A stretch of 21,807 nucleotides of DNA from Chiloscyllium plagiosum (lineage: Eukaryota). The stretch is from the NCBI RefSeq assembly GCF_004010195.1, contig NC_057759.1, positions 405,518 through 427,324 of the forward strand, in the 5' to 3' direction. A program made the position numbers and the translations under genes. Below, piece after piece: positions 1,048 through 20,945 of the stretch (the stretch's first letter is position 1; the number at the start of each line of letters is the position of its first letter). The notes under the pieces were generated by a model. That model searched no databases. It was given only the letters and a program-made list of their open reading frames with translations, and was not told where the DNA came from.

Positions 1048-1048
1048 T

Positions 1049-1351: not shown

Positions 1352-1400
1352 GGGTGTCAGGAGTTCCTGCCCCCGGGGAGAAGTCACAAGTGACTGGTAA
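1349..1400 (+). other. gag-pol amber stop with readthrough-type context
   Basis: TAG GGG TGT CAG GAG resembles the MLV junction TAG GGA GGT CAG GGT. The downstream protease sequence is cut off after ~1400. Confidence 0.65.
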
Positions 1401-1618
1401 ACAAACAGAACTGCATGATTACAGTTGTTAAAATGTTTTAGTCACTTGTTGCGTTTCCACCCTGAATTATATAATATATATAATTAATAATTAATATTTA
1501 TAATAAATCAATTGTGTTAGCCTGAATCAATATTAATTGGCAGGATTCCGTCATACATTCTCAGTGACCTGTCATATTGATTCATGGTTAATTTAAAACA
1601 TGACTGCATTAATTCATT

Positions 1619-1743
1619 CCTGAAGAAGGGCTCATGCCCGAAACATCGGTTCTCCTGCTCCTTGGATGCTGCCTGACCTGCTGCGCTTTTCCAGCAACAC
1701 ATTTTCAGCTCTGATCTCCAGCATCTGCTGTCCTCACTTTCTC
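1619..1743 (+). mobile_element. 125-bp retroposed unit (Penelope-like terminal repeat) with 15-bp target-site duplication
   Basis: Flanked by the exact direct repeat CTGCATTAATTCATT at 1604-1618 and 1744-1758; begins with a hammerhead core. Confidence 0.8.
1620..1650 (+). ncRNA. Minimal hammerhead ribozyme motif (PLE type), probably decayed
   Basis: CTGAAGA (1620-1626), extra A, stem II GGGC-tcat-GCCC, GAAA (1640-1643), then CATC where CGTC is expected (CpG decay). Stem I is weak. Confidence 0.6.
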
Positions 1744-1787
1744 CTGCATTAATTCATTGTTAATTAAAGAATGAAAAGCTACGTTAC

Positions 1788-2694: not shown

Positions 2695-2899
2695 CTAGTT
2701 GTCACCCGAGCTGGGAGGGACCATTCCTAACCCCCCTGACTACTGAGACAGCTATCCGGACTACTGAGACAGCTATCCGGACTGCTGAGAAGGGGTGGAG
2801 TCATCACACTCACATTAAAGGTCCTGTGAATGCCCCATTGGCGGAGTGGCACGCTCATCCTACAACCCTCTGAAAGTTAAGCTGAGAAAGAAGGAATGA
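2695..2899 (+). pseudogene. pol: ERV integrase C-terminal (GPY/F) fragment
   Basis: PSWEGPFL..TTETAIRTAEKGWSHHTHIKGP, then after a frameshift PLKVKLRKKE* (TGA 2897-2899). No HHCC or DDE core. Confidence 0.85.
2739..2780 (+). repeat. Perfect 21-bp tandem duplication
   Basis: ACTACTGAGACAGCTATCCGG x2 (TTETAIR x2). Confidence 0.95.
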
Positions 2900-4253
2900 A
2901 CTGAGACAAAAGACTCTTTTAATGTTTGATGATATATATTGTTGTTGTTTGTAAGGGCTGCATGGACTCACCTCTCCCTGGCGCCTAAAAGATTAAGACA
3001 GATAGACAGGACGGTTGGCAGAGGTCAGAGATGGGCGGGTATTGGTATAGTACGGAGGCGGGAAAAATCACTTCACTTCACTATGCCAAACTTATGCTGA
3101 ACAAAAGGGACTTTCTGACTGTTGGGTCTGTGCAGAGGTCCCACACCATGGCGAATCTGGGATGCCCACCTCGGTAATATCGCTCACCAAAAGAGAAGTG
3201 TACGATGTACAACAATTTGACTCTGGCTCAAATAATACAAAGTGGAGATCTGACGGGTGAATATAACATTTTTGGATAGTTCCCTCGACCAGCCCTGAAA
3301 ACCCAGGGTGCTATCGATGGCCTTAGAGTTTCCCCACCGAAAGCAGCAGTAAATACCACCTGTTTCTGTAATCAGAATGATACCGCACCCTTCCAATTAG
3401 GAAAATCATCTTGTGTCTATACCAGCCAAGCCACTGCCATGACCATTCCCCGAATATTAAACGGAACATATTGGGTATGTGGCCTGAAGGCCTATCCATT
3501 TATTCCTGGGGAAAAATAGATTTGCATGACCGAATGTATAGGAATGCATGCATGTTATGATGTTGATGAAATACTGCCTCAAAGCCAGAAAGGCTGGAGT
3601 GGCTGCTGTTACCTCGCTTATATAGTTCCTCACCTCCGATTAGAAAAACATGAGCACTACCTGAGAAAGGAGGGGGGAATAAGACGTAAGGCCCGAGAGG
3701 TCCCTGAAGGAGATCGTCTATTGTGGACACTATTCCCAAACTACGGTGCTGCAAGAGCAGGGGTAGAAATACAGAAACTGGCGGCTGCCCTTGAGAAGTT
3801 AATTAATGAAACCGTTGACGTAATGGGAGAAACTCAGTCCCAAATATCGGCCATAACCACCGAAATGATTGCCACAAGACTAACAGCTTTACAGAATTGA
3901 ATGGCTTTAGACTACCTCTTGGCCAAAAAAGGGGGAACCTGTGCTCTGATTGGTAAGGAATGCAGCACCGTCATCCTCGACACCTCTTCCACAGTGGAAG
4001 ATAAGGCAGAAATAGTAAAGAAAAAGATAAAGAATATAAAAGAAATTGGGGATGAACTTCAAAAAGATGAGGGATGGGGATGGGCGACTGGGGACTGACT
4101 GGTTGGGGAAATTGGTTAGTTAATTTAGGCATTTATATATTACTGATGATAGTAGGTCTAATAATAGGATTTAATGTGTTAAAGTGGATAGTGAGTAAGT
4201 TGGTAATGTCTTTAAGAGGACAACAATCAATGTTGGGTGCACAAGGAAGATAG
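2896..4253 (+). pseudogene. env: ERV gamma-type envelope (SU+TM), disrupted
   Basis: Signal-like LMIYIVVVCKG; CWVC 3120-3131; NGTYWVCG; WSGCCYL; RRKAR cleavage site 3682-3696; LQN*MALDYLLAKKGGTC ISD; CALIGKECS (decayed CX6CC); TM WLVNLGIYILLMIVGLIIGF in a shifted frame; several stops and frameshifts. Confidence 0.92.
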
Positions 4254-4401: not shown

Positions 4402-4928
4402 TTGTAAGAAATGGGGAAGTGTGTTGTTTTCGCAGATATAGCAAAAAGGTAGTGATAATAAGCTTAAGTATAGTGCTGATAAATCAAATGCTTCTAAGAA
4501 AAACAAGCGTGTGCGTGCAGAAAAGGGGAACAACGGAAAACCGTTAGTGGATAATTGGGTACTAACTTTAATGCATAATTATTCTAGCAAATAATTTTTT
4601 TCATCATGATAGTTTAAATAATTTAGTCTCAGCAAACTAGCTGAGATAGCTGAAATGCATAAACTAGGCAAGAAAGGACACATTGTTAAAATATTCAGGA
4701 ATGGAATGTACCTATGAACAATGGAAGATTTTACAAGCAAACAGATAAAATGAAAGGAACATCAAGATCCAAGTTTAGCAAAATCTCCCTTATGTCAGCA
4801 CTTACAGAGGGAAGGGTCGCCAACTTGGAAAAGGGGGGAATAATAAGAGCGGATTGCAAGTTATTCAGAGAATAAAGTTGATTGGGTAATGTAGGAGTCA
4901 GAAGAGGCGACCTCACGCAGCTCAAAAG

Positions 4929-4933
4929 TATAA
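4929..4933 (+). promoter_or_regulatory. Putative LTR TATA box
   Basis: TATAA ~70 bp upstream of the poly(A) signal; inverted CCAAT (ATTGG) at ~4881. Confidence 0.5.
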
Positions 4934-4999
4934 CTGTGTACTAGTTTGAATGCTCATTGCTCATTTGCTTCTGCATTTGATGCCCTTGCAAGATCGTAG

Positions 5000-5005
5000 A
5001 ATAAA
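5000..5005 (+). terminator. LTR polyadenylation signal
   Basis: AATAAA followed by a GT/T-rich tract, 57 bp before the LTR end. Confidence 0.7.
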
Positions 5006-5145
5006 TTGTCTTGTTTCCAGTTTTGGTGGTCTTGTCTAATTTTATTAAATTTATTTCTAGCAATAATAATGACAAATACACACACAGAGAGGTGGGAGTG
5101 AACAAGAAATTGTGCGGCGGCACATCAAGACCAATGGCCACTCTC

Positions 5146-5754: not shown

Positions 5755-5796
5755 ATTCATGCATCTGCCTTGATACATCTTTATTGATGCTATCGT

Positions 5797-6521
5797 CTGG
5801 GGAGTGTTTCCGAACAAACAGCCCTATGGGGTGCAGGAAGACCGTTCCTTAAATGTGGCATTGCAGCTTGACACTGTGGTGAAGTAAGCGTTTGGCATGC
5901 TTGCCTTCACTGGTTAGAGCACTGATGACAGGGGTTGGGGCATCATGTTACAGCTGTACAGGATGTTGGTGAGGCCACTTTTAAAATACTGTGTACAGTC
6001 CTGGTCAACCTGCTGTAGAAAGGATGTCGTTAAGCTTGAAAGGTTATAGAAAAGATTTACAAAGATGTTATCAAGGTTGCAGGGTTTGAGTTATAAGCAG
6101 AAGCTTCATAAGCTGGGACCTTTTCTCCCCTGGAGCGTTAGAGGCTGAGGGGTGACCTTTATAGAGGTTATAAAATCACGAGGGGCACAGAAAAGGTAAA
6201 TAGGTATAGTCTTTTCCCCAATGTAGGGGTGTCCCAAACTAGTGGGCATAGGTTTAAGGTGAGAGTGGAAAGATTAAAAAGGGACCTGAGAGACAAATTT
6301 ATCACACACAGGGCAGTGATTATATGGAATGAGCTGCCAGAGGAAGTGGTAGAGGCAGGTACAATTACATGGAAGAGACGTTTGTAAAGGTACATGGATA
6401 AGAAAGGTTCAGAGAAGTATGCGTCCAATGCAGATAAATGGGGCGAGTTGAGTTTGGACAACCTTGTCAGCATGGGTGAGTTGGGCTGAAGGGCCTGTTT
6501 CCATGCTGCATGACTCTATGA
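5797..6521 (+). mobile_element. HER1-like CR1 LINE 3' end
   Basis: LQLYRMLVRPLLKYCVQ..; TSGHRFKV; WNELPEEVV; tail GGGCTGAAGGGCCTGTTTCCATGCTGCATGACTCTATGA. Confidence 0.9.
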
Positions 6522-6629
6522 AAATGGATGAGAATAACAAACTTTGCCTGAATGTACAGGAGGAGCTGTGAATATGTGGGGTCATTATACAGACCAATTT
6601 CTCTTATCAAAACACATGATTGGAACAAA

Positions 6630-6688
6630 TCACAAACTGATCCTGACAAATGTTATTTCTCTGTCCTCTGAACAGGATGTGGCCATCT
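6630..6688 (-). pseudogene. Candidate terminal cytoplasmic exon
   Basis: Acceptor cttcccaccttgacAG; phase 1 gives EMATSCSEDREITFVRISL*. ITFVRI would be an ITIM if TTT were TAT. Confidence 0.25.
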
Positions 6689-6830
6689 CTGTCAAGGTGG
6701 GAAGTGGATGCAATTCTGAAATGTCTTTGAACCAATCGACTTGCTCAGCCAGAAGGCAGTGAAGAGTTTGCAATGGTTAGGAATCACGTGCAGAGCAGAG
6801 CGGGTAAGGAGGTCAGATTTCACTCCTTTA

Positions 6831-7078
6831 AGGACCATCGCAGACAGGAACAGGAGAAGGCCATTCGGCCCCTCTAGCCTGCTCATCCATTCAATAGCAT
6901 TGTGGCTGATGCACCATTCCTCATGCTCACTTTCCTGCATTTAACATGTAACCCTCAATTCCCTGACTGATCAAGAATCTCCTGCTCCTGTTTCCACACA
7001 CAGCTCTCTGTGGCAAGGAGTTCCAACGACTCTCAACCCTCTGAAAGAAGAAACTCCTCCTCACCTCAGTCTTCAATT
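6831..7078 (-). mobile_element. CR1 LINE 3' end
   Basis: Minus strand KTEVRRSFFFQRVESRWNSLPQRAV and 3' UTR GAGGGGCCGAATGGCCTTCTCCTGTTCCT. Confidence 0.85.
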
Positions 7079-7084
7079 TTGAAC

Positions 7085-7222
7085 CAGATGGTTGTTTGTT
7101 CCTGACAACAGTCATCATTAGAGTCTTAACTCCAGATCTGTTTTTGTTTAAAATCGCATTCCAAATCCACCATCTGCCAAAGCAAGATTCAAATTCACAT
7201 CTGCAGGGCATACCCTGGGGAG
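7085..7222 (-). mobile_element. Degenerate tRNA-derived SINE 5' part (DeuSINE/SacSINE-like)
   Basis: Minus strand ...GGCAGATGGTGGATTTGGAAT...ATCTGGAGTTAAGACTCTAATGATGAC. Confidence 0.5.
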
Positions 7223-7333
7223 CTGAAAATATAGGATTTTGCTTCCCCATTATTTCAGAAACGGAAAGTGAATTTCATCAAAATTGAGACCAGAACAAGT
7301 TGCTGCACACCACTGAGCTAAACATTGATGTCG

Positions 7334-7451
7334 ACAGAATCCATACAGTGCGCAAAAGGACCATTCAGCCCATCCAGTCTGTCCTAAGCCAGTGAAGAGG
7401 ATCCCACCCAGACCCCTACCCTACCCCTGTAACCCTGCATTCACCATGGCC
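7334..7451 (-). mobile_element. HE1-like SINE 3' fragment
   Basis: Paralogous to the 3' part of the adjacent SINE (GGCCAATCC..AACCTGCACATC; LINE-shared tail). Confidence 0.7.
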
Positions 7452-7817
7452 AATCCCTCTAACCTGCACATCATAGAATCCTACGCATGGAAGCAGGCCT
7501 TTTGGCCTGTCAGGTCCATATATTGACCCTCTGAATAGCATCCGACCCAGACCTACCACCTCTCCAATCCCTGTATGCCTGCATTTCCCATGACTATGCC
7601 TCTTAGCGTGCATAACTCTCACACTATGGGCAACTTAGCAAGGCCAATCCATCTAAACTGCACATCTTTGGACTGTGGGAGGAAACCGGAGAACCTGGAG
7701 AAGACCCATGCAGAGAAAGGGAGAATGTGCAAACTCCCAATAAACAGTCACCCAGGGCTGGAATTGTTCCTGGGACCCTGGCGCTGTGAGGCAACAATGG
7801 TAACCACTGTGCCACCC
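7452..7817 (-). mobile_element. HE1 SINE (V-SINE), near full length
   Basis: Head GGGTGGCACAGTGGTTACCATTGTTGCCTCACAGCGCCAGGG; core GGAGTTTGCACATTCTCCC...GGTTTCCTCCCACAGTCCAAAGATGTGCAG; HER1-shared tail. Confidence 0.9.
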
Positions 7818-7844
7818 AATGTTTTTGCCGCTGGCCATGCAGGG

Positions 7845-8060
7845 GTTGGTTAGCTCAGTTGATTCTATAGTAGGCTTACAATGTACAGTCACATTGACAG
7901 CTTGCGTTCAATTGCAGGTCTGGTAGAGATTGCTGTGAGTGATCATTCCCTGTGCTTTAGATGTGGTGTCCTTCAGGTTAAACCATAAAACAGTTGTTTG
8001 CCTTTTCTCCCCCACACCTCTTTCTCCCTCTCTCTAATGAGACAATGGTGACTTCACATT
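7845..8060 (+). mobile_element. Degenerate tRNA-derived SINE
   Basis: A-box-like GGTTAGCTCAGTTG and B-box-like GTTCAATTGC; related head at 15972-16024. Confidence 0.6.
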
Positions 8061-8102
8061 AATCACCTGCTAAAAACATAACTTTGCTGATTAAAAATTA
8101 AC

Positions 8103-8164
8103 TGCCCTCTTTTTCACTGCAAAATAACTTGTACTTTTCCTCCCTGATGCACTATTGGAGTGAG
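8103..8164 (-). pseudogene. Candidate cytoplasmic exon with ITSM-like motif
   Basis: Strong acceptor cttctcttttattttcAG; phase 1 gives HSNSASGRKSTSYFAVKKRA (TxYxxV); weak donor GTTAAT. Confidence 0.45.
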
Positions 8165-8214
8165 CTGAAAATAAAAGAGAAGACACTTTACCAATGGTGC
8201 GTATCTAAATGAAG

Positions 8215-8665
8215 TGGGAGAGGGTGCACAGGGAGATTTACCAGCATATTGCCTTGGGGGCTGCAGAGTTTCAGTGATTGAGAGAGGTTGGACAGACTGG
8301 AGTTGTTGTTCTTACAGCAGAGTAGATTGAAGGAGAGGGATGTATAAAATGATGAGGGATGAAGATAGAGGAGGCAGGAAGAAACTTTCCCCGCTTAACG
8401 GAGGTGGGGAAGGGGTATAGAGTAAAGGTAAGGGCCAGGAGGTTTCAAGGGGATGTGAGGAAAATCTTGTTCACCCAGAAGGTGGTGTGCAATCTGTAAG
8501 TCACTGCCTGTGAGGGTGGAAGACGCAGAAACTCTCATTACATTGAAGGAGGATTTAAATGTGCACTCGTGACGCCAAGTGCTGGGGAAATGGGATTAGA
8601 GAATATCGAGATGGTTGTTTCTGACCAGCACAGACTCTGGCCTTTTTCTGGGATGCAGATTTCTC
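8215..8665 (+). mobile_element. CR1 LINE 3' end, degenerate
   Basis: ERVHREIY.., GAGAGGTTGGACAGACTGG, GGATGTGAGGAAAATCTTGTTCACCCAGAAGGTGGTG. Confidence 0.8.
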
Positions 8666-8739
8666 AAAAAATATGACTAACTCACCTTTGAGATGTGTAA
8701 TCTACATCCAAGATACTATCTAGCATGATTTTGTACATT

Positions 8740-9205
8740 TCATGTTCAGAGATGAGGGGTTTGTCGTCGAAAGAGAGATTCAGCAGTTAAGGCCAATATT
8801 CTCTGGAGTTTAGAGGAATAAGGGAGATCCAACTGAGGGATACAGGCTGGTAAAGGAGATGGGATTGACAAAGGAGACAGAGAGGATGTTTCCTCAGGTG
8901 TGACAATTTAGAACGAGAGGGTTATTGCTTCAGGAGAAGGGAATGGAACAGATTGTAACGAGAGATGTTGAGAAATGTCTCCCCTCCAAGGCAGAGGGGG
9001 TGGGAATCTCTGGGAATTCACTTCCTAGTAGGTGGGGGCATGTCGGGATACTGAATAAATTGAAGGAGGGTCAGACAGATTGTTAATCAGTGAGGGGTTA
9101 AAGGGAGGGGGGCAGGAAACTGCAGTGAGGCTGGGATGAGATCAGCCGCAGCTGTATAGAATGGGGGAAGCAGGGTCCCGAGGGCTCCTCGCCTGTATGT
9201 TGTGT
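8740..9205 (+). mobile_element. CR1 LINE 3' end, degenerate
   Basis: CTCTGGAGTTTAGAGGAATAAGGGAGATC, GGATGTTTCCTC, GGAATCTCTGGGAATTC, GAGATCAGCC...GAATGG tail. Confidence 0.75.
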
Positions 9206-9328
9206 TGATTGTCCAGCTGCCTAAACACTTTTTAGTGTGGCTAGCTCATAGCACATGCTCAGAAAGCTCTGAATCTGAGGGCCTAAACTGTGTGATGCAT
9301 CACAGTCCATTAGTCTCTTAGAAACCAA

Positions 9329-10212
9329 GACCATAAGATATAGCAGCCATTCGGCCCATCAAGTCTGCTCTGCCATTCCATCATGGCTGATATGTTTGTT
9401 AACCCTATTTTCCTGCCTTCTCTCTGTAATGGTTAATCCTCCTCTTGATCAAGAACCTATCTCTGTCTTAAAGACATAAATGACAGCCGTCTGCAATAAT
9501 GAGTTCCACAGATTCCCCACTGTCTGGCTGAAGAAATTCCGCCTCATCTCAGTTGTAAAAGGAGTCCCCTTCATGCGGAGGCTGTGCCTTCGAGTCCCAG
9601 TCTCTCCTACTCGTGGAAACATCTTCTCCATGTCCACTCTATCCGGGCCTCTCAGTATTCTCCAAGTTTCAACCAGATTCTCCGTCACCCTTCTAAACAC
9701 AATCGAGTCCAGAGTCCTGTTCCTCAACCTCTCCTCATATGACAAGCTCTTCATCCCTGGGATTTTTCTGGACTCCTTCCACGTTCAGCACATTCTTCCT
9801 TGGGATGCTCACAATGTTCCAAATATGGTCTGACCAGAGCCTGATACAGCCTCAGCAGTACATCCCTGCTCTTGTATTCTACACCTCTTGAAAGGAATGC
9901 TGACATTCCATTTGCTTAACTGCCAACTGAAACTGCCCATCAACCTGAAGAGAATCCTGAACCTGGACTCCCAAGTCCATTTGTGCTGTAGATTTTTGAA
10001 CCTTTTCACCATTTAGAAAAGTCAACCCCTCTATTCTTCCTACTAAAGTACATAACTTCTCACGTTCCAATTTCTCAACATCTCCTGTTTCAATCTGTTC
10101 CATCTCCTTCTGCCATTTTGTGGCACACCTCTCCTAGCCAACTCTTTCTGCAGCCTCACCCCTTCCTCGATACTACCTGTCCTTCCAGCTATCTTTGTGC
10201 CATCAAAGAAAC
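9329..10212 (-). mobile_element. CR1 LINE 3' ~0.9 kb
   Basis: DGTKIAG..EEGVRLQKEL; MKSLSYEERLR..MFPRVGETGTRRHSL..EMRRNFFSQTVGNLWNSL. Confidence 0.9.
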
Positions 10213-10691
10213 ACTCAGTACAATGAAATGGCAATGCTCCTCATGTGAATGATGCTAGACCTAGAGTGAATGGCTCCTTGCCCCCAAAGACCAAGGCCAG
10301 AAGGGACCACTGTTGTACTGAGGCAATCAACAGATTGATGTCCCAGGGTCTAGAAAGTAGGTATCCCCTGAAAACAAGATGAAAGATAAAGCAATTAGCC
10401 ATCAGTTCCCTCTTCCAATTCACACTGCCTTGTTGTTAATTTAGTTGAGAGAGATGGAACACCTCTATGATTTAGATGATTGCAAACACTATCGATGATT
10501 AATAAATTCAAATGTTAAAAAATTTGAAAAGCTTGGGCAGACCTTTGCTCCATGCTATAAGCAAGAGAAACACTAGCAATGTTTAAATGTGGCTGGGTTT
10601 CTGAGGGATAAGATAAAATCTTAACCAGAGAAAATCTCCACTTTCACTGAACCAGAAATGTTATAAAGTGTATATATATTATATTCTTTAC

Positions 10692-10756
10692 CAGCCTTTC
10701 TTGGTTTGAGATGGTGAAAACTGAGTACATCAAACTGCTATCTGTTTTGGAGTCAT
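10692..10756 (-). pseudogene. Cytoplasmic exon with ITIM-like motif
   Basis: Acceptor ttattgtttttttgattatAG and donor GTAAAG; phase 1 gives DDSKTDSSLMYSVFTIS; 65 bp, one short of phase 1-1. Confidence 0.55.
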
Positions 10757-11059
10757 CTATAATCAAAAAAACAATAAGCAAAGTGAACCAAATGATTTGA
10801 GATCAGAATATTAAAATAACAGCAAACAATGCCTCAAAATTAAATATGGAGTGATAATTAAGGTCACAGCCCCAACCCAACAATAACATAAACTGAAGCT
10901 CTTGGCGATATAGGAACATTTTCAAAGCAGTTCACGAACCAGGTGACTCAATAACATCGAATGTGTATTTTGCATCAACAAAGTTTGCACCTACCCTCCC
11001 AGAACAAGCTCACAGAGGGAAGGTGGAGGCCCTGGGGTAATTTACAATTTTTTTATTAT

Positions 11060-11578
11060 TAATCACTCATGACACATGGGTAACACCCACTGGACCCTGC
11101 GTTTATTGCCCAACTCATCCCTGGTGGACTACTTGAGAAGGTAGGGATAAGCTGCTTTCTTGAACTGCTGCAGTCCATGTGCTGTGGATAGAAATGCATT
11201 GCCCTGAGGGAGGGAATTCCAGGATTTTAGCCCAATGACACTGAAGGAATAGTGTCATATTTCGAAGTCAGAACACTGCATGGCCCAAAGGGGAACTTGT
11301 AGAGGGTGGGTGTTCCCACGTATCTGCTGCACTTGTCCGTCGAAATGGAAGTGGTCATGGGTTTTGAAGGTGTTGCCTGAGGATCTCTGGTGTATTTTCA
11401 CAGTACATCTTGGTATTGCTGCTAGTGAGCATTGGTAGTAGAGGGAGTGGATGCTTGTGGATGTGGTTCCCAGGAAGTGGGGACTGCTTTTTCCATCGAT
11501 GATATTGAGCTTTTCAAATATTGTTGGAGCTGCAACCATCCAGACAAGTGGGGAGCATTCCATCACACTCCTGACTTG
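11060..11578 (-). mobile_element. CR1-clade LINE 3' end (second family)
   Basis: MECSPLVWMVAAPTIFEKLNII..SIHSL; SWNSLP; GLQQFKKAAY. Paralogous to 17830-18265. Confidence 0.85.
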
Positions 11579-11748
11579 AGACTGAGATACTTGGAATGGC
11601 TCAATCAGGGAAGACTCTGACCATATATATCCCTCTCAGGGATAAAGGAATAAAATCATGAAGAATCAATATTGTTCTATTTTCTTCAGATCTATCCTAC
11701 AAACTCCAGTATGAGTCACACCCATCACACACAGTCTCCCTCACATGT

Positions 11749-12068
11749 TCAAAGTTTGGGTGAAGATTTGTAGCTCGGGTGCTCGTTGTTGTGGTTCTGT
11801 TCGCCAAGCTGGAAATTTTTGTTGCAAACGTTTCGTCCCCTGTCTAGGTGACATCCTCCGTGTTCGGGAGCTTCCTGTGAAGCGCTTCTGTGGTGTTTCC
11901 TCTGGCATTTATAGTGGCCTGTCCCTGCTGCTTCCAGTTGTCAGTTTCAGCTGTCCGCTGTCGTGGCCGGTATATTGAGTCCAGGTCGATGTGTTTGTTG
12001 ATGGAATCTGTGGATGAGTGCCATGCTTCTAGGAATTCCCTGGCTGTTCTTTGTTTGGCTTGCCCTAT
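11749..12068 (-). mobile_element. Penelope-like element 3' end (end of GIY-YIG region plus terminal repeat)
   Basis: IGQAKQRTAREFLEAWHSSTDSINKHIDLDSIYRP followed by a hammerhead motif. Confidence 0.88.
11823..11863 (-). ncRNA. Minimal hammerhead ribozyme motif of the PLE, core-mutated
   Basis: CGGAGGA (CTGAnGA expected), T, stem GTCACCT-agac-AGGGGAC, then GAAACGTTTGC with palindrome AAACGTTT. Confidence 0.65.
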
Positions 12069-12600
12069 GGAACAGTCTTGCATTGTTTATTTGAAACTTT
12101 TTAAAGAAGGCCAGTGGATTACAATCAGTGTCATTTATATGTCATTGTTCTTTGTTGGATCGACTTCAAAGTGCTGAAGAACCAACAGTAATCCCAAAGC
12201 CCCCTTTCCTATGGGAGAGTATTTTTCCCAATGAATGGTATTGTTTGTAATAGCAGCATCCTCCAGGTTTCACAATTCCTAACACATCATCCTGGAACAA
12301 GACAGCACTTCGCCCCAATTCACCAGCATCAGCGGCCATTTTGATAAGACTGGAAAACTCAGGGATGGCCAAAAGTGGTTCATTGATTCAAATTGCTTTC
12401 ACCTTTCAAATGTAACCTCACACTCAGCTAACAAAACCACTTTTTCTTATTTCCATTACAAATTTGTTAAAGGCGCAGCCATCCAGCTAACATCATGGAT
12501 AACTTTCGAGTAAAGTCAAATATTCCTAAAAAATCGATTAATTTCTCATTTTGTTTTAGGAACAAGGAATTCTGGTAGTGTCTTCAGTTTTGCTGTGTCC
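12069..12600 (-). mobile_element. pol: Old Ty3/Gypsy pol fragment (RT thumb to RNase H)
   Basis: Across frameshifts: EFLVPKTK*EINRF/LG, AAPLTNL, INEPLLAIPEFSSLIKMAADAGELGRSAVLFQ, KYSPIGKGALGLLLVLQHFEV, TDCNPLAFFKKFQINNARLF. Confidence 0.85.
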
Positions 12601-12605
12601 ATCAA

Positions 12606-12766
12606 TGTGTGTGTGTGTGTTTGTGTGTGTATGCCTGTATGATTGTATTTGTCTCTCTATGTGCTGCTGTATGTTTCTCTGCACATCTCTGTGTTTGTGT
12701 CTCTGAGTATCTATATGTATTGACATCTGTCACACAGACACAGACACACAAACACACACACAAACA
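12606..12766. repeat. Degenerate (TG)n ... (CA)n microsatellite pair
   Basis: TG-rich tract from 12606 and CA-rich tract 12730-12766. Confidence 0.7.
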
Positions 12767-12834
12767 TGCATCAACATTACCATAAGCATTGTGTCACTTT
12801 AAACGTAAGAGAAATAGACAGAGATAAAGCCCCA

Positions 12835-13002
12835 CTGTGTATATTTCTGATGATGTCCAAGAATTCCTGTGTTGATTGTATAGGTTGTCTGGATCCGCTG
12901 ACCAGGTGTTTCAGTTTCTGCTGTAGTTCTTTAGCCAGTTTGTGTGATGGTGTCCCTGGTAGTGATACTATGGGTCTGAGTGGGATGTCTGGTTTGTGCA
13001 CT
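12835..13002 (-). mobile_element. Penelope-like element RT N-terminal fragment
   Basis: VHKPDIPLRPIVSLPGTPSHKLAKELQQKLKHL..IQSTQEFLDII (PLE KxHK..PLRPIVS motif). Confidence 0.9.
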
Positions 13003-13109
13003 TCCCTCACATGTACTGAAAGCCTTTGATTTCTGCCGGTTAGTAATAATTCTCAAAGTATGCCCCTTGTTCGAGGATCTCGAGGTTTGTAAATAAAATG
13101 ATTAGTTGC

Positions 13110-13166
13110 CATCCTGTATCCCTGTGTTCTTCACTGAAGAGTACATGGCTCCAGCACAACTCAAAA
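13110..13166 (-). pseudogene. Cytoplasmic exon with YxxV motif
   Basis: Strong acceptor ttttcttttgacctttTAG; 57 bp, phase 1-1, open frame VLSCAGAMYSSVKNTGIQD; donor is GCAACT (GC, or mutated GT). Confidence 0.55.
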
Positions 13167-13299
13167 CTAAAAGGTCAAAAGAAAAGATGGAAAATTGTCT
13201 TCAACAGCAGTCAGACAGTCCCCAGGTGGCAAATAATATCTGTCCCTGCTGAGTTTCTCCAAAAATTTCTGTATTTCTTTTCATTTCTGACACTCAGTG

Positions 13300-13920
13300 C
13301 CTGAAGAAGGCTAATGAAATGCTGGCCTTTATATCGAGAGGACTAGAGTACAAGGATGCAGAAGGGATGCTGCAGTTATACAAAACCCTGGTTAGACCCC
13401 ACTTGGAGCAGATCTGGGCACCACACCTGAGGAAGGATAGATTGGCCTGGGAGTACAGCGTGAGTTTACAAGATTGATACCTTGGCTTCAGGGGTGATGA
13501 GGAGAGATTACATAAAGTAGGCCTGTTCTGTCCAGAATTTACAGGGTTTAGGGATGATCTGATCGAAGATATTAACAGGAGAAGACAGGGTATAGAAATT
13601 GAAAGTGTTTCCACTGGTCGGGGATCTTTGAACTAGGGAGGGCATTGCTGGAGAATTAGGGCCAGACTGTTCAAGAGAGATGTTAGGAAGTACTACTACG
13701 CACAAAGGCTGGGAAAGGTTTGGAACTCTCTACCACAAACAGCAGGCATTGCTGGATCATTTGTTAGTTTTAAATCTGAGAGAGAATTTTTTTTTTGTTC
13801 AACAAAGTTATTAAAGGGGATAGGGGCACGAGCAGGTCTATGGAGTCAGGACACAGATCTACCATTGAATGGTTGCACAGGATCAAGGAGCTGAATGGCT
13901 TCGTCCTGCTCCTTTCTATG
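13300..13920 (+). mobile_element. CR1 LINE 3' end
   Basis: KKANEMLAFISRGLEYKDAEGMLQLYKTLVRPHLEQIWAPHLRKD; tail GCTGAATGGCTTCGTCCTGCTCCT. Confidence 0.9.
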
Positions 13921-14034
13921 AATATTCCACATTAATAAATCATGGAATCCCCTGCAGTTACAAAATGACATTTCCACACACCAGAGCAATTAATGATTTC
14001 AAATAGAAACTGAAAGTCCAAATATTTTATTTTC

Positions 14035-14192
14035 ACATGTTCCAGATCCCCACCATCCTCTGGGTGAAACAATCCTCAAATCCCTCTCTAAACCTCTTAC
14101 CCTTCACTTTAAAATGATGTCCCCCCCCTTGTTACTGACCCTTCGACTAAGGGGAACAGCTGCTTCCTGCCCCCTGTCCATGTCCCTCATAT
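14035..14192 (-). mobile_element. Older CR1 fragment that appears to continue at ~14914-15000
   Basis: TTCCAGATCCCCACCATCCTCTGGGTGAAA...TGTCCATGTCCCTCAT, resuming as AATCTTACAGACCTCTATCA after the HER1 insert. Confidence 0.65.
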
Positions 14193-14197
14193 TAGCA

Positions 14198-14913
14198 TCA
14201 TAGAGTCATACAGCAAGGAAACAGACCTTTCAGTCCAACTAGTCCATCCCGACCATAATCTCAACCTAAACTCGTCCCACTTGTTTACACTTGGCCTATA
14301 ACTCTCCAAACCTTTCCTATTCTTGTACTTATCAAAATGTCTTTTAAACATTATAACTGTCCTTTTATCCTCCACTTCATCTGGGAGTTAAATCCACACG
14401 TGTACCGCTAGCTATATAAAAAAAAGTTGCCCATCATGTCATTTTTAAAAATGTTTCTCCTCTCACCTGAAAACTATGTCCCCTGGTCTTGACGCCCACC
14501 CCCACCCTTGGGAAAAGACACCTGCAATTCACCTGATCTATGCCCATCATCATTTCATAAACCTCTATACCCCTCAAACTTCTGCACTCCAGTGATAATA
14601 GTCCCAGCCCATCCAGCCTCTCCTCATAACTCAAACGCTCCATTCCCAACAACATACTGATATATCTTTTCTGAACCCTCTCCAGCTTAATAATGTCCTT
14701 CCCAGAACTGGACACAATACACCAGAATACACCAGGACACTTCACCAGTGTCCTGTACAACCACAACATGATATCCGAACCCCAACGATCAAAAGGTCTG
14801 AGCAATGAAGTCAAGTGTTCTAAACACCTTCTCAAACACCCTGTCTACCTGTGACACAAACCCCAAAGAATTATATACCTGAACCTGTAGGTCTCTCTGC
14901 TGTACAACACTAC
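14198..14913 (-). mobile_element. HER1-like CR1 LINE 3' end
   Basis: DIMLWLYRTLVK..DIIKLERVQKRY..LSYEERLDGLGLLSLE..KTRGHSFQV; tail TATGACTCTATGA. Confidence 0.9.
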
Positions 14914-15102
14914 CAATCTTACAGACCTCTATCATGACCCCTCCACCATCAACCATCTCTGTTGTTCAGGAAACAACCCAAACTTCTTTCCAATGCTTCC
15001 AGAGATTTGTTTTTGTTGATCTTCCCAATCAGACAAATACCAGCATGAACGCTGACCAATATGCATTGATGTAGGATCAGCAGCTCACAGGTTCACACTC
15101 AC

Positions 15103-15174
15103 CATTCAATAGACTTGACCCGATCTCTGCATATTCAAAATTTCTTGCAGGTCTGTCGATTTCGCATCACCTCC
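15103..15174 (-). pseudogene. Cytoplasmic exon with YxxI motif
   Basis: Acceptor atttcattccaAG and donor GTGAGT; 3' part reads RPARNFEYAEIGSSLLN and ends in phase 1; 5' part out of frame. Confidence 0.55.
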
Positions 15175-15326
15175 CTTGGAATGAAATATTTCCAGACCAT
15201 TAAGCAAACAAGTCCTGCTGTTTGCATGCAAAAATCCCTGGCAACATGGTCACTGAGCCAAGCTCCCAAGGAGTTGTCCAGAATCCTCCTGGAATTGTCC
15301 AGAATCTGGTTCAGAACTTCTATGTT

Positions 15327-15670
15327 CATAGAATCATAGTATTTTACTGTAGGGAAGGAGGCCATTCATATCTGTACCAGCTCCTGAAAGAGCTACCCAG
15401 CTAGTCCCACTTTCCAGCCCTATCTCTGTAGCCCTCTAACATCAAATTTATATCCAGCTCTCTTTTTGAACCTCCTATGGAATCCACCTCCCAAGCAGCA
15501 CATTCCAAACCCAACAACCCAATAAGTTTCTCCACATCTCACTCTCTCACTGACAATCTTGAAATTCTAGCCAGCCAGTTTCTAATAAACAAATGAGTGG
15601 GAAACAATAACTTGTTTTTCCGTCAGAATTTGTTCAAATTTTCAACGCCTCAATAAGGTCACCACTTCAT
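15327..15670 (-). mobile_element. CR1 LINE 3' end, degenerate
   Basis: Plus strand CATAGAATCATAG..GAAGGAGGCCATTC..GCAGCACATTCCAAA. Confidence 0.65.
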
Positions 15671-16023
15671 CTGAAATCCCTCATTGTTGTATGAAAAGGA
15701 TACCATCTCCTTCACACTCAGGTTTGAACAGCCTTCATTAAATAAGGTATCCAGAACAGAACAAAATCAGCCTGGGTAAGAGAAGCCCAACTCCCTTTAT
15801 CAAATGTATTTCTAAATTCAGCTTCTGTTGCCTGTGTTGGTAAGGTGTTATACACTTACAAAGAAATATCCAACAGATCAAAAGTTTATCTCCAATGCGA
15901 TCTAATATTCTCCATTCAATGCTTGTGCTGTCACCGGAATTAATTTCTTTTCTGCCCTCTACTTTGTGTTAGGTTAGCTCAATTGGCTGAAATGTGGAGT
16001 AAGATTGACAGCGTGGGTTTAAA

Positions 16024-16025
<2 letters not shown>

Positions 16026-16060
<35 letters not shown>
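16026..16060. repeat. (TC)n microsatellite
   Basis: ~17 perfect units. Confidence 0.97.
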
Positions 16061-16062
<2 letters not shown>

Positions 16063-16310
16063 CACTCCAACTGAGGTCCACCAGTGTCTTGTACAACTTC
16101 ACATCACCTCCTTGTTCTCAGTCTCTATGCCCCTATTAATAAAGCTGAGGATGTTGTGTGTTTTATTAACTGCTGTCCCCTTGTTATGCCGCCTTCACTG
16201 ATCTGTGGACATATACCCCCAGGCTCCCTCTGCTCCTACACCTGCTTTAGTTTTTTTTACCCCCCCCAAATCTATTGTCTTTCTGCTTCTTTGAACCAAT
16301 GTCATTCCCC
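16063..16310 (-). mobile_element. CR1 RT fragment, degenerate
   Basis: ACTCCAACTGAGGTCCACCAGTGTCTTGTACAACTTCACATCACCTCC is antisense to EVMxKLYKTLVxPQLE. Confidence 0.65.
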
Positions 16311-16434
16311 AAATTTTTGTTGAATCAATTTTGTCTTTATTTTCAGATGTTCATGAATTAAAACCTATTTTGTTCAATCAAACATCATTTTCTCCGTCCC
16401 AGTTGTTTTGCTACTAAGTAACAGTATAACTCCA

Positions 16435-17300
16435 GAAGAACATACAGTGTAGGATAAGGTTGAGTCAATTTAGCCCCTCGGTAACCTGCTCCGCTATTCC
16501 ATACAATCGCAGCTGATCCCATCTCAGCCTCAATCCCATCTCAGCCTCAACCCCACTTTCCTGAAAACACTCCCTTTGACCTATCACTGATTAACAATCT
16601 GTCTGTCTCCTCCTCCAACTTATGCAGTGTCCTGGAGGGTGGGGGGGAGTGATCCCACAGATTTACAACCTCTTCATTTCAGAGATTTCATTCCTCCTTA
16701 TCTTTGTTTTCAATCTGCCCAGCCCCTTATCCTGAACCGATAACCTCTCGTTCAATATTCTCCGACATGAGCAAACATCCTCTCTTCATCTCCTTTGTCA
16801 ATACCCCCTTTAGCATCTTATAGCCCTCAGTCAGTTCTCCTCTGTACACTCCAGAGAAACCACTCAATCTCTCATCTAACGCAAACCCTTCATTGCTGGA
16901 AATGATTGGGTGAATCTCTTCTGAACTGCATCAGTCCTCAAGTAGAGAGATCAAAATTGTACCAGTCTGTTCTCATAATACTAACCTTTTCATCTTGGCG
17001 ATCAATTCAGTGATCTCCTTTGAACTCCTGGAGGGATTCAACTACATCCCTCCTCAACTACTCACAGTCCTCCGGATGTGGAAACCCCAATTGTACAGTT
17101 GCAGTAACAATTACCTACTTCAATACTCCATTCCTTTCAAATTAAATGTCTTCTTTGTGACCTGCTGTAGCCTGTACACTACTTTGAGATTCATCCACAC
17201 GGACATCCTGTTCCCTTTGCACTGACATTTTGAATTTTCTCTCCTGTTCAGATGATAACTTGCCTTCTTCAATTCTTCCAACTGCAATGGATAACCTCAC
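16435..17300 (-). mobile_element. CR1 LINE fragments, degenerate, with 17-bp tandem duplication
   Basis: CCTGCTCCGCTATTCCATACAATCGCAGCTGATC tail; ATCCCATCTCAGCCTCA x2 at 16516-16549; GGATAACCTCACA at ~17290. Confidence 0.65.
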
Positions 17301-17532
17301 CACTGATGGGACTGACCAACGCTCAGTTCAGTGTCTAACGGAAATTGAGAGAGTGTCCTCGATTTGAACTGTTATGCTTTAGATTTGCAAATGAGTCAGA
17401 CACCATGATCCATTTGCTCCAATTTGTCTAACAAATGTAAAAATGTTGGCTTTGCACCCCAGAGTGATTTTTCAGCCCATTCGGACAGTGTTTGAATGCT
17501 GTTGCAAGTTGTTAATCACCTCACTAACTTAC

Positions 17533-17563
17533 TTGTGCCACCGGGAACTGCTGGAAGAATCAG
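17533..17563 (-). pseudogene. 31-bp first cytoplasmic micro-exon
   Basis: Acceptor ctttctcccttattttctccAG and donor GTAAGT; phase 1 gives ADSSSSSRWH. Confidence 0.65.
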
Positions 17564-17829
17564 CTGGAGAAAATAAGGGAGAAAGAACATGTTTTACTGT
17601 AAATATTCAGCTTCACCTGCTCGCAAATGAATCTGGATTCCTTGATTGATGCACAAGCAACAATTATTCCAATTGTAATCTTTAGTTTATAACTATGCTG
17701 ACCATTCTTCTGAACACAACACATTACTTGGGGAGACATAAAAAGTAATTTCATCTGCCACTTGTTCAGCCTGCCCTCATCCTCAAAAAAAAAACACGGT
17801 GTGGAACGTGCTTTGTAAGTTCACTGGTG

Positions 17830-18265
17830 GGTTGTGGAAATCACTGACTGGGCCGTGAATTTATTATCCATCCCAAGTTGAGCCCTTGAGAATGAGATAG
17901 TGAGCTGCCTTCTTGAACTACTGCAGTCCCTGTGCTGTTGGTAGACCCACAATACCATTAGAGAGGGAATTCCAGGATTTTGACCCAGGAACACTATAAA
18001 CGAATAGCTGATATATTTCCAAGTTGGATGGTGACTGGCTCAGGGGGAAACTTGCAGGAGGTGGTATTCTCATGTACCTGCTGTCCTTGCCCTTCTAGAT
18101 GGAAGTGATTATGGGTTTGGAAGGTGCTGTCTGAGGAACTTCTGCAGTGCATCTCACAGATGGTACACACTGCTACTGAGCATGGATGGTGGAGAGAGTG
18201 GATGTGGTGCCAATCAAGCATAGGCTGTGTTGTCTCTGGATGGTCTTTGGCTTCTCAAGTGTTGT
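17830..18265 (-). mobile_element. CR1-clade LINE 3' end (second family)
   Basis: IHSLHHPCSVAVCTICEMHC; SKSWNSLSNGIVG. Paralogous to 11060-11578. Confidence 0.85.
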
Positions 18266-18519
18266 CTATGAGGTGCATTGCAGAAGTGATTGAGTGTCTA
18301 TTTGCGTGCACATGAAAGTGTGTGTGTATCAATGGAATGTCTGTATTTCTCTCACACACACATGCACAACTTCATACTCTCACTCAAACACACTCGCACA
18401 CATACTCTCTCATAGACACACCCTCATATGCTCTATGTGAGCAACATTAATTTGAAACCCACGTTGAATCCCAACTGGAGAACAATCACTAGCGTTACCT
18501 GACAGAGTGTCTCACCCAC

Positions 18520-18622
18520 CTTGTTTCCTGGTCCGGAGTTTAATGGGAAGCAATGTGACAAGAGAAAGGATCACCTAACAGTGAGACAATGAGTTCTGCC
18601 ATCTCAGCGCTGTGTTCCTGTG
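18520..18622 (-). pseudogene. Transmembrane exon, frameshifted
   Basis: Acceptor ccctctctgaatccAG and donor AAG|GTGGGT; AQEHSAEMAELIVSLL / VILSLVTLLPIKLRTRKQ (hydrophobic then basic); 103 bp = 3n+1. Confidence 0.65.
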
Positions 18623-19009
18623 CTGGATTCAGAGAGGGATTTCCTGTCAACAACATCATTGCTTCAGCAAACACCAACCCCAGTGTTTCCTGTTCCCTGT
18701 TGCCCTTACCCCCTGCCAACACCCATCCATTTGGAGGGAAACCCCTGTATCTGTGAAATTCACTCCATATCCTCACCATTGCAGTGACATCACTGTTTCT
18801 GTGCAGCCTGTCTCATTAACAACATCCCACCACTCCAACCCAAACTATTCAATACTAAACTCAAAAAATCACTCTGCACTCCCATCTCTCGAAATTGTCA
18901 AACAGAAATTACTGTCCCTCATTTTCACAGCCTACATGTATCGAGGAAAAACTTCCCTTTGTCCTCCACCTGTCAGCAGCAATTGGACCATTCACAGAGA
19001 AACATCGAA

Positions 19010-19570
19010 AATATGATCGTGAGGAGGCCTTTTGGCCCCTCCAGCCTGCTCCACCCATTCAATGAGATCATGGCTGATCACCCAACTTGATCCTGTATCT
19101 CCCTGCGTTATCCCTTTAACCCCTAAGAACTCTATCAACTCCTTCCTGAATAACATGCAGTATTCTGGCCCTGACTGCTTTCTGTGGCAGAGAATTCCAC
19201 AGGCTCTCCACTCTCTGCATGAAGACATTTCTCCCCATCTCAGTCCTGCCCAGTTTCCTTTAGACTGTGACCCCCTCGTTCTGGACTCTCTATCCGGTAA
19301 CTGGGAACACCCTTCCTGTGTTCACTCTGTCTCGTCCTTGTTCAAATTGAGAGGTTTCTATGGGATTTCCCATTAATTCTTCCAAACTCTAGTGAATATC
19401 ATTCTAACCAATCCAGTCTCTCTCCATTTGTCAGTTCTGCCATCCCAGGAATCACTCATGGAAACCTGCTGTACAACCTCATGAGATTCCAAACTACGCG
19501 CACAGTTCTCCAGGGTAGCCAGCCACCCTGCTCCTGGACTTGAATCCTCTCGCTATGAAGGCCTCCCTTA
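19010..19570 (-). mobile_element. CR1 LINE 3' end
   Basis: GGCCTTTGGCCCCTCCAGCCTGCTCCACCCATTCAATGAGATCATGGCTGAT tail; TTCTGTGGCAGAGAATTCCACAGG. Confidence 0.85.
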
Positions 19571-19619
19571 TCTGAGAAAGGATGTTACTTTCCTCTTCCC
19601 TCTGCCCCCCCCCCAACTG

Positions 19620-19734
19620 GCATAGCTGCTGCCATACATTCTGGGTTTTTCCAGCACTTTGGGTTTATAACCTGTAACATTAACTCTCTCTCCATAGATG
19701 CTGCAGACCTGCTGAGTTTCTGAAGCAAGTTTTT
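19620..19734 (+). mobile_element. Two eroded remnants of the PLE-type terminal repeat
   Basis: CATAGCTGCTGCCATAC..TTTTCCAGCACTTT and AACATTAACTCTCTCTCCATAGATGCTGCAGACCTGCTGAGTTTC. Confidence 0.5.
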
Positions 19735-19809
19735 AAAGAGTGTTTATGTCAAGTTTTCAGCTGGACTCCAGTGAAGAACTAGTACTGATCACGATGAAGA
19801 ATGGACTAC

Positions 19810-20097
19810 CTGGCACTGTGTGGTCGGAATTACTGGTCACATTAAGTATTGTTGCACTGGGACCCCTGTTGATCACAACAGACTGGTATTGGCCTTGGTG
19901 TTGGGACTGGAAAAATTCAGTGGCCAGTTCTGTCCTGTCTGAGCTAGAGTTGTAATTCCCGCTAGCATTGTTTAAGGCTTTCTGTTGAAAGTAGGGTCCA
20001 GTACCTCCGCTCATTACACACTCTGGAATGAGACAACTCCCAATCAGAACCTCCGTTTTAGTGGCTCTGGGGGCGAGGAAAATCCCAGTAACAGGAA
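19810..20097 (-). pseudogene. Ig-like (FCRL-type C2) domain exon
   Basis: Acceptor tctttgtcttattttgttccAG and donor CAG|GTAGT; 288 bp, phase 1-1, open frame VPVTGIFL..EVLIGSCLIPECVMSGGTGPYF..TELATEFFQSQHQGQYQSVVIN. Matches FCRL PVSG..L.C.V..GTGP..F and GxYxC; second Cys and core Trp are lost. Confidence 0.8.
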
Positions 20098-20338
20098 CTG
20101 GAACAAAATAAGACAAAGAGGAAATAAAAGATTGGATGTTGAAATTGTCTCTGTTTTTCATGGATGTTATCATCGATGACATGATGATAATTGATGGAAA
20201 GGAGACATAAAACAAGCGAGATTTCACATCATTACAAAGTCTCCCTGTGTTGTACAATCTCCACTTTGAAAGATTTGTGTAAACTATGGATGACCAAATG
20301 GTACCTCATCCAACCATTGCCTCTTGATGTTCAATGGT

Positions 20339-20570
20339 GTTACCATCACTGTCCCCACCCCGCTGCACAATCAACATCCTTGTGGGTTACTGTTACTGTT
20401 TGCACCCCAGCCTACTATCAACATACTGGGGGTTATCGTCACTGTCCCCACCCCACTGCACTATCAAAATCCTAAGGGTTACTGTCACTGTTCCCACTCC
20501 CACCCCACTATCAATGTCCTGGGGGTTACCATCACTGTGGCCAACCCCACCCTAGTATGAACATCTTTGG
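20339..20570 (+). repeat. Minisatellite, 5 x 46-47 bp, derived from LINE RT sequence
   Basis: Units start at 20339, 20386, 20432, 20478 and 20525: GTTACYRTCACTGT..CCC..ACTATCAACATCCTGGGG. Confidence 0.9.
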
Positions 20571-20742
20571 TATTAACTTCAGCCTCCTTCAGCTTGTATT
20601 GTCTCAGCTTCGACCTTTCTCTGATGGATTGTTTCACAAGGAATTGTAAACTCAGATCTACAGCACAGAAACGGGACCTTCAGCTGACTGAATCCATGTC
20701 AGTCAAAAGTAGCCAACTCTATTCTCTAGTATCATTTTCCCA

Positions 20743-20945
20743 GTCATAGGGTCACACAGCATGGAAATAGGCCTGTCGGCCCAGCGCGTCCATGCTGACC
20801 TGGTCTCACTCGCGAAACTAGTCCCATTTGTTTACGTTTGGCCCATATCCATTGAAACCTTTCCTATCCATGTATCTTTCCAAATCTCTTTTAGAGGTTG
20901 TTTTTATACCCACTTCCTCTGGCAGCTCATTCCAAATATAAGGCA
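20743..20945 (-). mobile_element. HER1-like LINE 3' tail
   Basis: GTCATAGGGTCACACAGCATGGAAATAGGCCTGTCGGCCC...CACTTCCTCTGGCAGCTCATTCCA. Confidence 0.85.

Follow-up and report, generated by a model that had tools for sequence, protein, structure and literature searches.

A probable pseudogene fragment copied from the back half of an FCRL-type ITIM receptor gene in the bamboo shark Chiloscyllium plagiosum

We analyzed 21,807 nt of the Chiloscyllium plagiosum genome (NC_057759.1, positions 405,518 to 427,324; here called the window) and found on its minus strand a damaged partial duplicate, introns included, that derives from the 3' portion of a gene for a five-Ig receptor with ITIMs and is most likely a dead pseudogene that arose by repeated segmental duplication in a cluster of ~7 Mb (probability roughly 0.92). 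On sequence similarity, with the parent placed by its similarity ranks, the window copy and its intact parent are assigned to an FCRL-type family. The first-pass annotation had described a hidden gene here; its family assignment stands on the parent's matches to FCRL5, FCRL4, and FcγRI, but its hidden-gene call falls because of the lesions in the window copy, and the family is already in RefSeq under automatic names.

Exons and lesions of the window copy

Between 5796 and 20938 the introns and exons of the window copy are colinear with the parent gene in blastn blocks of 64 to 79% identity, and its exons follow the same order; the three exons called earlier (Ig, TM, and the 31-nt exon) each align to a parent exon at E 1e-14 to 1e-97, which excludes chance. 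Compared with the parent, annotated in RefSeq as "PECAM-like," the copy retains exon order and introns but holds only 7 of 14 exons, namely Ig5, the transmembrane (TM) exon, and five tail exons (C1 to C5), as follows.

5796..20938, minus strand: segmental duplicate, with introns, of the parent's 3' half (FCRL-type), pseudogene fragment (blastn blocks)
19810..20097, minus strand: Ig5 homologue, 288 nt, phase 1-1 (alignment to parent; AG/GT ends)
18520..18622, minus strand: TM homologue, 103 nt, AG/GT ends (alignment to parent)
17533..17563, minus strand: tail exon C1 homologue, 31 nt, AG/GT ends, the sole undamaged exon (alignment to parent)
15103..15174, minus strand: tail exon C2 homologue with a 20-nt deletion, frameshift (alignment to parent)
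13110..13166, minus strand: tail exon C3 homologue with a GC donor instead of GT (alignment to parent)
10692..10756, minus strand: tail exon C4 homologue (the parent's first ITIM) with a 1-nt deletion, frameshift (alignment to parent)
8133..8164, minus strand: tail exon C5 homologue with an AC donor instead of GT (alignment to parent)

Six of the seven exons are hit and one is undamaged according to automated alignment, which also supplied the lesion flags for the relatives discussed below. The damage comprises three frameshifted exons, two non-GT donors, the loss of Ig core residues, and the absence of the last exon, C6. No open reading frame runs across the exons, and the copy lacks the leader-to-tail open frame required of a functional FcR/FCRL member. 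Retained parental introns along with genuine disabling lesions (frameshifts, altered donors, and missing exons, the TM lesion recurring in the X1 short-read contig and in four sister copies) are the marks of an unprocessed pseudogene.

The Ig exon had been called at exactly these coordinates, and its strand, length, phase, splice ends, and motif are all confirmed; its open frame starts PVTGIF and carries a C..V..GGTGP motif. Relative to parent Ig5 it is 15 nt shorter, in frame, with the C-strand Trp deleted and Ser in place of the second Cys. The exon has no Pfam match at E<=10 and only a weak PDB match to FCRL4 (E 0.21), although its protein is 62% identical to the parent's fifth Ig domain and the exon itself is ~79% identical to that of the parent. 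The open Ig5 frame and the intact C1 are points that count against reading the copy as dead.

The TM exon is 102 nt long in 25 of 30 aligned copies, the window copy included among the 30, and 103 nt in the window, where a +1 frameshift lies ahead of a complete hydrophobic core and, read in the frame that continues from the Ig exon, a stop follows after 26 codons. Its annotated coordinates and AG/GT ends were correct, but the hydrophobic-then-basic peptide exists solely in the shifted frame. Across this exon a contig (18232-18650) from short-read run X1, possibly the same sample that lies behind the assembly, has 0 differences and 0 gaps, and four sister copies share the frameshift, so we reject an assembly error as its source. 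The 31-nt micro-exon was rightly called and aligns to parent C1, and the further small exons anticipated downstream exist as the four homologues of C2 to C5. The proposed limit of the feature at 6630 is not exonic, since the final intron of the parent covers 6451-6843 in alignment.

Both ends of the gene are missing. Upstream exons had been placed beyond 21807, yet we found none of S1 to Ig4 in the next 90 kb, a stretch that begins with a 4901-N gap which could conceal sequence (Ns also occur in some sister stretches); that stretch holds a single family exon, an Ig exon of the second subfamily in L035, which contains a stop and lies on the opposite strand. Similarity between the window and its sisters on C100025, on C94925, and at C50:4.21 Mb reaches the gap edge, and no S1 to Ig4 exons lie above Ig5 in the stretches retrieved for sisters C100864, C100025, C50:1.21 Mb, and C50:4.21 Mb. 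The parent's S1-Ig4 region spans ~13 kb and therefore would not fit into the 4.9-kb gap. At the other end, the parent's C6, which encodes the second ITIM and the stop, has no homologue in or below the window. We rejected displacement of C6 by a retrovirus, as the sister at C50:1.2 Mb has an empty insertion site and likewise no C6.

The intact parent and its FCRL-type relatives

The parent lies 2 Mb from the window on scaffold C50, at 2.50-2.53 Mb (the part matched by the window is 2,503,310-2,517,402) and corresponds to RefSeq XP_043539736-43 (P0003, P0017). It has 14 exons, GT-AG at every internal junction, and a 1968-nt coding sequence whose translation equals the RefSeq protein, with five Ig domains, an uncharged TM segment, and two ITIMs. 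The 143-aa tail has five tyrosines, two of them in consensus ITIMs that are kept in two other sharks. FcR/FCRL genes have a leader split across two exons, the second of them short, and one phase-1 exon per Ig domain; the parent shows this layout, with leader exons S1 and S2 of 40 and 30 nt and five Ig exons that are each a multiple of 3, and its tail carries tyrosine motifs of the ITIM/ITSM type found in such receptors. FCRL4 and FCRL5 are inhibitory receptors whose ITIMs recruit SH2-domain phosphatases, and by analogy the parent would act as an inhibitory leukocyte receptor, its ITIMs recruiting the same class of enzyme. Orthologues occur in Stegostoma (named "Fc receptor-like protein 2/4"), Hemiscyllium, and C. 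punctatum; automatic RefSeq names in the family are "Fc receptor-like protein 2-6" or "PECAM-like." Scaffold C50 carries several intact multi-Ig ITIM receptors.

The best PDB matches to the parent are human FCRL5, FCRL4, and FcγRI (9loc, 9mbz, and 8din; E 1.9e-49, 2.9e-19, and 6.8e-19), and the earlier description of the window copy as the 3' part of a gene of FCRL type was right. In single-domain PDB searches Ig2 matches FcγRI domain 2, Ig3 matches domain 3 of FCRL5, FCRLA, and FcγRI, and Ig4 and Ig5 match FCRL5; together with the whole-protein alignment these give the FcR-subtype order D2-D3-D4/D5. Ig1 alone has no FcR match in the PDB at E<=0.05, weakly matching Robo, TCR constructs, and KIR3DL1, and aligns to domain 1 of FCRL4/5 in the whole-protein search. 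The parent also shares its ITIM tail with human FCRL5 and FCRL4 and is ~26-29% identical to frog and turtle FCRL models. PECAM1 resembles the parent in being a multi-Ig, ITIM-bearing protein; unlike PECAM1, the parent belongs to a large tandem family. We rejected PECAM1 as its best match: FCRL5, FCRL4, and FcγRI lead the PDB results, no PECAM-named chain appears among the PDB matches listed for the parent or its domains, and in the Atlas FCRL clusters rank 1-5 (0.97-0.98) and PECAM clusters 6-12 (0.96-0.97).

The shark cluster is similar to the Xenopus XFL family, which, in the part of PMC2413239 consulted, is a lineage-specific FcR-type expansion by birth and death that includes gene fragments. 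The same part of that source describes activating, FcRγ-associating XFL members, unlike the shark and ray models that we scanned, in which clear TM segments lack a charged core residue and most full tails have ITIMs.

Synteny did not place the cluster. We searched for seven marker families which we take to represent the tetrapod FCRL region (PRCC, Prp31_C, UFC1, RGS-like, Ets, the zeta family, and Not3), and none matched on C50. PRCC and Prp31_C had no match, UFC1 is on unplaced sequence, RGS-like genes are on C35 and unplaced sequence, 0 of 36 Ets matches are on C50, and the zeta family is on C12. Scanning 150 of the 503 ORFs in 20 sampled 10-kb stretches of C50:7.1-8.06 Mb likewise left the cluster unplaced. 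The evidence for an LRC location of the shark FCRL-like genes is mixed, with Not3 on C39 and an IGSF1/A1BG-like Ig exon at C50:7.26 Mb.

Copies, selection, and transcripts

As anticipated, the window copy belongs to a cluster and has paralogues in the genome with the same exon chain. The genome holds ~50 loci with this Ig5 exon versus ~11 with Ig1, and each of the 16 non-parent copies examined has one or more lesions. For Ig5, dN/dS is 0.83 between window and parent and 0.59-1.33 when the window is compared with seven paralogues, and pooling six sister copies gives 1.22; these values rest on 11-44 differences per pair. The pooled value for 24 non-parent copies, 0.75, may still reflect older constraint. 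Purifying selection on the copies has been lost by this measure (0.83 and 1.22, from small counts). Values near 1 can also arise from positive selection in immune receptors.

Unequal crossing-over would have copied the 3' cassette many times. A clade of sister copies, already without the Trp, the Cys, and the upstream exons, would then have multiplied and afterward drifted, and an endogenous retrovirus would have inserted later, just below the window copy.

Among 149 reads over the window from RNA run X21 (a single-cell poly(A) run sampled to ~2%, without a positive control on the parent), no spliced joints were listed. About 15 reads across Ig5 have their first mate on the minus strand and are taken as antisense; in six of them a non-templated poly(A) follows 20144, which lies 16 nt past an AATAAA at 20123-20128. 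At 20074, 20083, and 20089, 14 of 15 reads carry a sister copy's letters, and the antisense reads agree with sister L004 (C100025) at all 6 sites.

An ambitious reading of these data, which we consider improbable, is that a true shark FCRL family has one inhibitory gene that seeded ~50 dead cassettes, some of them transcribed antisense and polyadenylated across Ig5 and serving the one working gene as regulatory RNAs or as sources for gene conversion. The more general proposal that dead copies have a non-coding role, through antisense RNA tuning the parent or as gene-conversion donors, is very unlikely: the polyadenylated antisense reads favor it, but they are few, come from one run, and bear the letters of a sister, a repeat promoter nearby would produce the same pattern by read-through, the Ig5 exon is only ~79% identical to that of the parent, and dN/dS reveals no constraint. 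We give very little credence to a short secreted decoy, in which the TM-exon stop would yield a soluble Ig product; an open Ig5 followed by a stop before the full TM segment is common to the window, L002, L003, and L004, but neither leader nor promoter was found, the domain has lost both the Cys of its disulphide and its core Trp and fails to score as Ig, dN/dS is ~1, and the frame is no longer open in sisters L005 and L018. Finally, the lesions largely refute a working FCRL-type membrane receptor with its upstream exons beyond the window, for although exon order, most splice sites, and the Ig frame are kept and the 4.9-kb gap sits where Ig4 could be, the TM frameshift and stop (present in X1 too), two further frameshifts, two non-GT donors, the lost last exon, Trp, and Cys, and upstream exons absent from 90 kb and from the sisters' retrieved stretches and too long for the gap make it extremely improbable.

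Implications for FCRL genes in sharks

Taken alone, the window fragment is a routine loss of the kind that birth-and-death evolution produces; what it adds is a measure of lopsided decay, with one intact gene set against 16 of 16 damaged copies examined. FCRL molecules have been said to be lacking in cartilaginous fish (reviews PMC4016189, 2014; PMC13337447, 2026). Yet the parent resembles FCRL5, FCRL4, and FcγRI domain by domain (Ig2-5), and the case for FCRL in sharks rests on the intact genes and not on the window fragment. We found no published account of this shark cluster in titles and abstract openings of a library with few subscription journals. Genes named fcgr1a-like, fcrl3, and fcrl5 are reported in bamboo shark B cells (PMC11372145). 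If a tree and synteny confirm the assignment, the FCRL family would date to the ancestor of jawed vertebrates, and the intact genes would become candidates to explain the IgM Fc receptor activity of sharks to which the title of a 1988 paper refers (cited in PMC6795676).

The damaged exon chain in the window

The window (C50:405,518-427,324) contains a piece of the 3′ half of a shark gene for an inhibitory receptor of FCRL type; the piece is genuine but probably dead, and is one of dozens (probability roughly 0.92). Its parent is an intact 14-exon, five-Ig, ITIM-bearing gene at about 2.50 to 2.53 Mb of the same contig (C50), from which the fragment retains the last Ig exon (Ig5), the transmembrane exon (TM), and five tail exons (C1 to C5):

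Exons of the window copy
19810-20097, minus: Ig5, in frame, 15 nt shorter than the parent exon; deletion of the C-strand Trp, Ser at the position of the second Cys
18520-18622, minus: TM, 103 nt; +1 frameshift and stop
17533-17563, minus: C1, intact
15103-15174, minus: C2, 20-nt deletion
13110-13166, minus: C3, donor GC
10692-10756, minus: C4, 1-nt deletion
8133-8164, minus: C5, donor AC

Ig5, TM, and C1 had all been named in the first-pass annotation and were recovered at these coordinates with AG and GT ends. The 288-nt Ig exon is open in phase 1, as proposed, but has no Pfam match at E values up to 10, and its best PDB match, FCRL4, is weak (E = 0.21). The hydrophobic-then-basic character ascribed to the TM exon appears only in a shifted frame; the frame of the Ig exon reaches a stop after 26 codons. 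No exon was borne out around 6630, where the proposed gene had ended, this position being the parent's last intron by alignment. Neither the window nor the 30 kb below it contains C6, the exon for the second ITIM and the stop codon, and 0 of 42 genome matches to C6 lie near the window (40 of 114 candidates scored).

The TM exon measures 102 nt in 25 of 30 aligned copies and 103 nt in the window copy, L059, and L060; L064 and L068 have the same extra base plus a deletion at the acceptor. The lesion is genuine: a 419-nt contig from short-read run X1 covers window 18232-18650 with no differences or gaps. Because X1 may be the assembled sample, this contig excludes an assembly slip more than it demonstrates fixation.

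The parent gene and its duplicates

With an intact-looking paralogue as the query, four database proteins were returned, among them P0003/P0017 (RefSeq XP_043539736-43, "PECAM-like," Chiloscyllium plagiosum), which maps letter for letter onto C50:2,502,959-2,531,147. In this parent gene the leader is split over exons of 40 and 30 nt; five Ig exons, a TM exon of 102 nt, and six tail exons follow, and every internal junction is GT-AG. The tail carries two consensus ITIMs, and the TM core is uncharged. Identity is 87% for the Hemiscyllium orthologue and 73% for that of Stegostoma. Five further RefSeq models, each with an ITIM-bearing tail, belong to a second subfamily.

Introns as well as exons align in order between window 5796-20938 and parent 2,503,310-2,517,402 (64 to 79% identity), and the window copy is therefore a DNA-level duplicate. 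Above Ig5, parent homology stops about 610 nt before Ig4. The next 870 nt or so are unrelated sequence, after which a 4,901-N gap begins; no leader or Ig1 to Ig4 exons of the parent were found in the 90 kb beyond the window (about 10 kb of Ns in total). The closest copies, or sisters, on C100025 and C94925 and at C50:4.21 Mb align with the window right to the gap edge, and that on C100864 matches as far as 21428. None has Ig4 above Ig5 in the stretches available (15 to 22 kb in four sisters, some with Ns; about 3 kb on C94925).

Genome-wide, the Ig exon has 63 matches, 29 of them with internal stops; 8 belong to the second, more distant subfamily (33 to 39% identity), and in 5 more cases the match is to the second piece of a split exon. 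At least about 50 Ig5 loci remain, a lower bound that may include haplotigs among unplaced loci (L006 and L007 are identical); 28 lie on C50 at 0.2 to 7.0 Mb. The Ig1 exon has 12 matches at a minimum of about 11 loci, so duplication of the 3′ cassette has been far more frequent than duplication of the gene in full. Among 17 copies checked exon by exon, chosen nonrandomly as best or nearest matches, only the parent is lesion-free; every one of the other 16, four near-full-length copies among them, carries damage. The window copy, L002 to L005, and L018 form a single clade (support, 0.96) whose members all lack the Trp and the second Cys. Ig5 dN/dS, estimated from few changes, is 0.83 for window versus parent; it is 0.59 to 1.33 for window versus seven paralogues and, pooled, 1.22 for six sisters and 0.75 for 24 nonparent copies, in these cases also from nonindependent pairs.

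One near-full-length copy at C50:7.01-7.04 Mb (L095 to L097) shows 87% DNA identity to the parent and has lesions in most exons. A possible intact relative is the short-tailed C. punctatum model P0023 (71% to the parent).

Transcripts and neighboring elements

RNA run X21 (single-cell poly(A), about 2% covered) gave 149 reads on window 7900-20900, mostly on repeats, with no spliced joints listed among them. About 15 reads lie over Ig5 with first mates on the minus strand, and 14 of the 15 depart from the window's letters at positions 20074, 20083, and 20089; of L001 to L030, only L004 (C100025) agrees with the reads at the six sites that differ. Among these antisense reads (window 19618-20144, plus strand, about 15 reads), six have a poly(A) behind 20144 that the genome does not encode. 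The AATAAA that precedes it by 16 nt (20123-20128) lies in the acceptor tract of the Ig exon when that tract is read on the opposite strand. We infer a low-level antisense transcript from sister L004/C100025 or an allele of it.

An endogenous retrovirus remnant with a short target-site duplication lies directly below the pseudogene:

Retroviral features
window 4403-5062 and L037:8779-9430 (C50:404,296-404,947): LTRs of about 660 nt each, 98.3% alike, TG..CA ends
window 1046-3900: coding remnants, zinc-knuckle and RNase H, in separate short frames

At C50:1.2 Mb the insertion site of the sister copy (L112) is empty, so the insertion is later than that duplication. Directly below the window, L037 (C50:397-404 kb) holds a second broken copy with Ig4 (internally duplicated), Ig5, TM, and C2. 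A similar two-copy layout recurs at C50:1.18-1.20 Mb (L124/L125), which suggests a higher-order duplicated unit.

Elsewhere on C50, L035:3962-4377 (about 471 kb, plus strand), 44 kb above the window and on the opposite strand, is a stop-containing Ig exon that falls in the second subfamily, most of whose members are intact. Two Ig exons outside the window copy's family (L144:8656-9147 and 7478-7813, about 7.258 Mb, minus strand), about 150 kb past the last family match sampled, are possibly of KIR/LILR type; look-alikes of the former in Atlas, a protein-cluster similarity resource, include IGSF1-like, alpha-1B-glycoprotein, FCGR3, and FCRL2 clusters (0.92 to 0.94). L142:7656-8588 (about 7.158 Mb) is an intronless rhodopsin-family GPCR frame, and L160:3483-3728 (about 8.05 Mb) is a SPRY-domain exon that may resemble HERC1.

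Probable Fc receptor-like genes in sharks

Judged by similarity, the parent very probably belongs to the FcR/FCRL family. In PDB it is matched best by FCRL5 (E = 1.9e-49), FCRL4, and FcγRI. By domain, Ig2 matches FcγRI domain 2 (E = 1.2e-11); Ig3 hits FCRL5, FCRLA, and FcγRI domain 3; and both Ig4 and Ig5 hit FCRL5. Ig1 searched alone has weak matches only, to Robo, TCR constructs, and KIR3DL1, and Atlas ranks five FCRL clusters slightly ahead of PECAM clusters. The window copy does not qualify as a working member of this family.

In published work, no FcRL was found in the shark genomes screened (PMC4016189), an absence restated in 2026 (PMC13337447); bamboo shark B cells are reported to express fcgr1a-like, fcrl3, and fcrl5 by annotation name (PMC11372145); Xenopus has at least 75 FcR-like genes and gene fragments (PMC2413239); and the reference list of PMC6795676 includes a title from 1988 about an Fc receptor for shark IgM. 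Neither "Fc receptor" nor "FcR" occurs in the main text of PMC7677710. The fragment by itself is ordinary; the cluster is at odds with two reviews, a contradiction that rests on intact genes annotated before.
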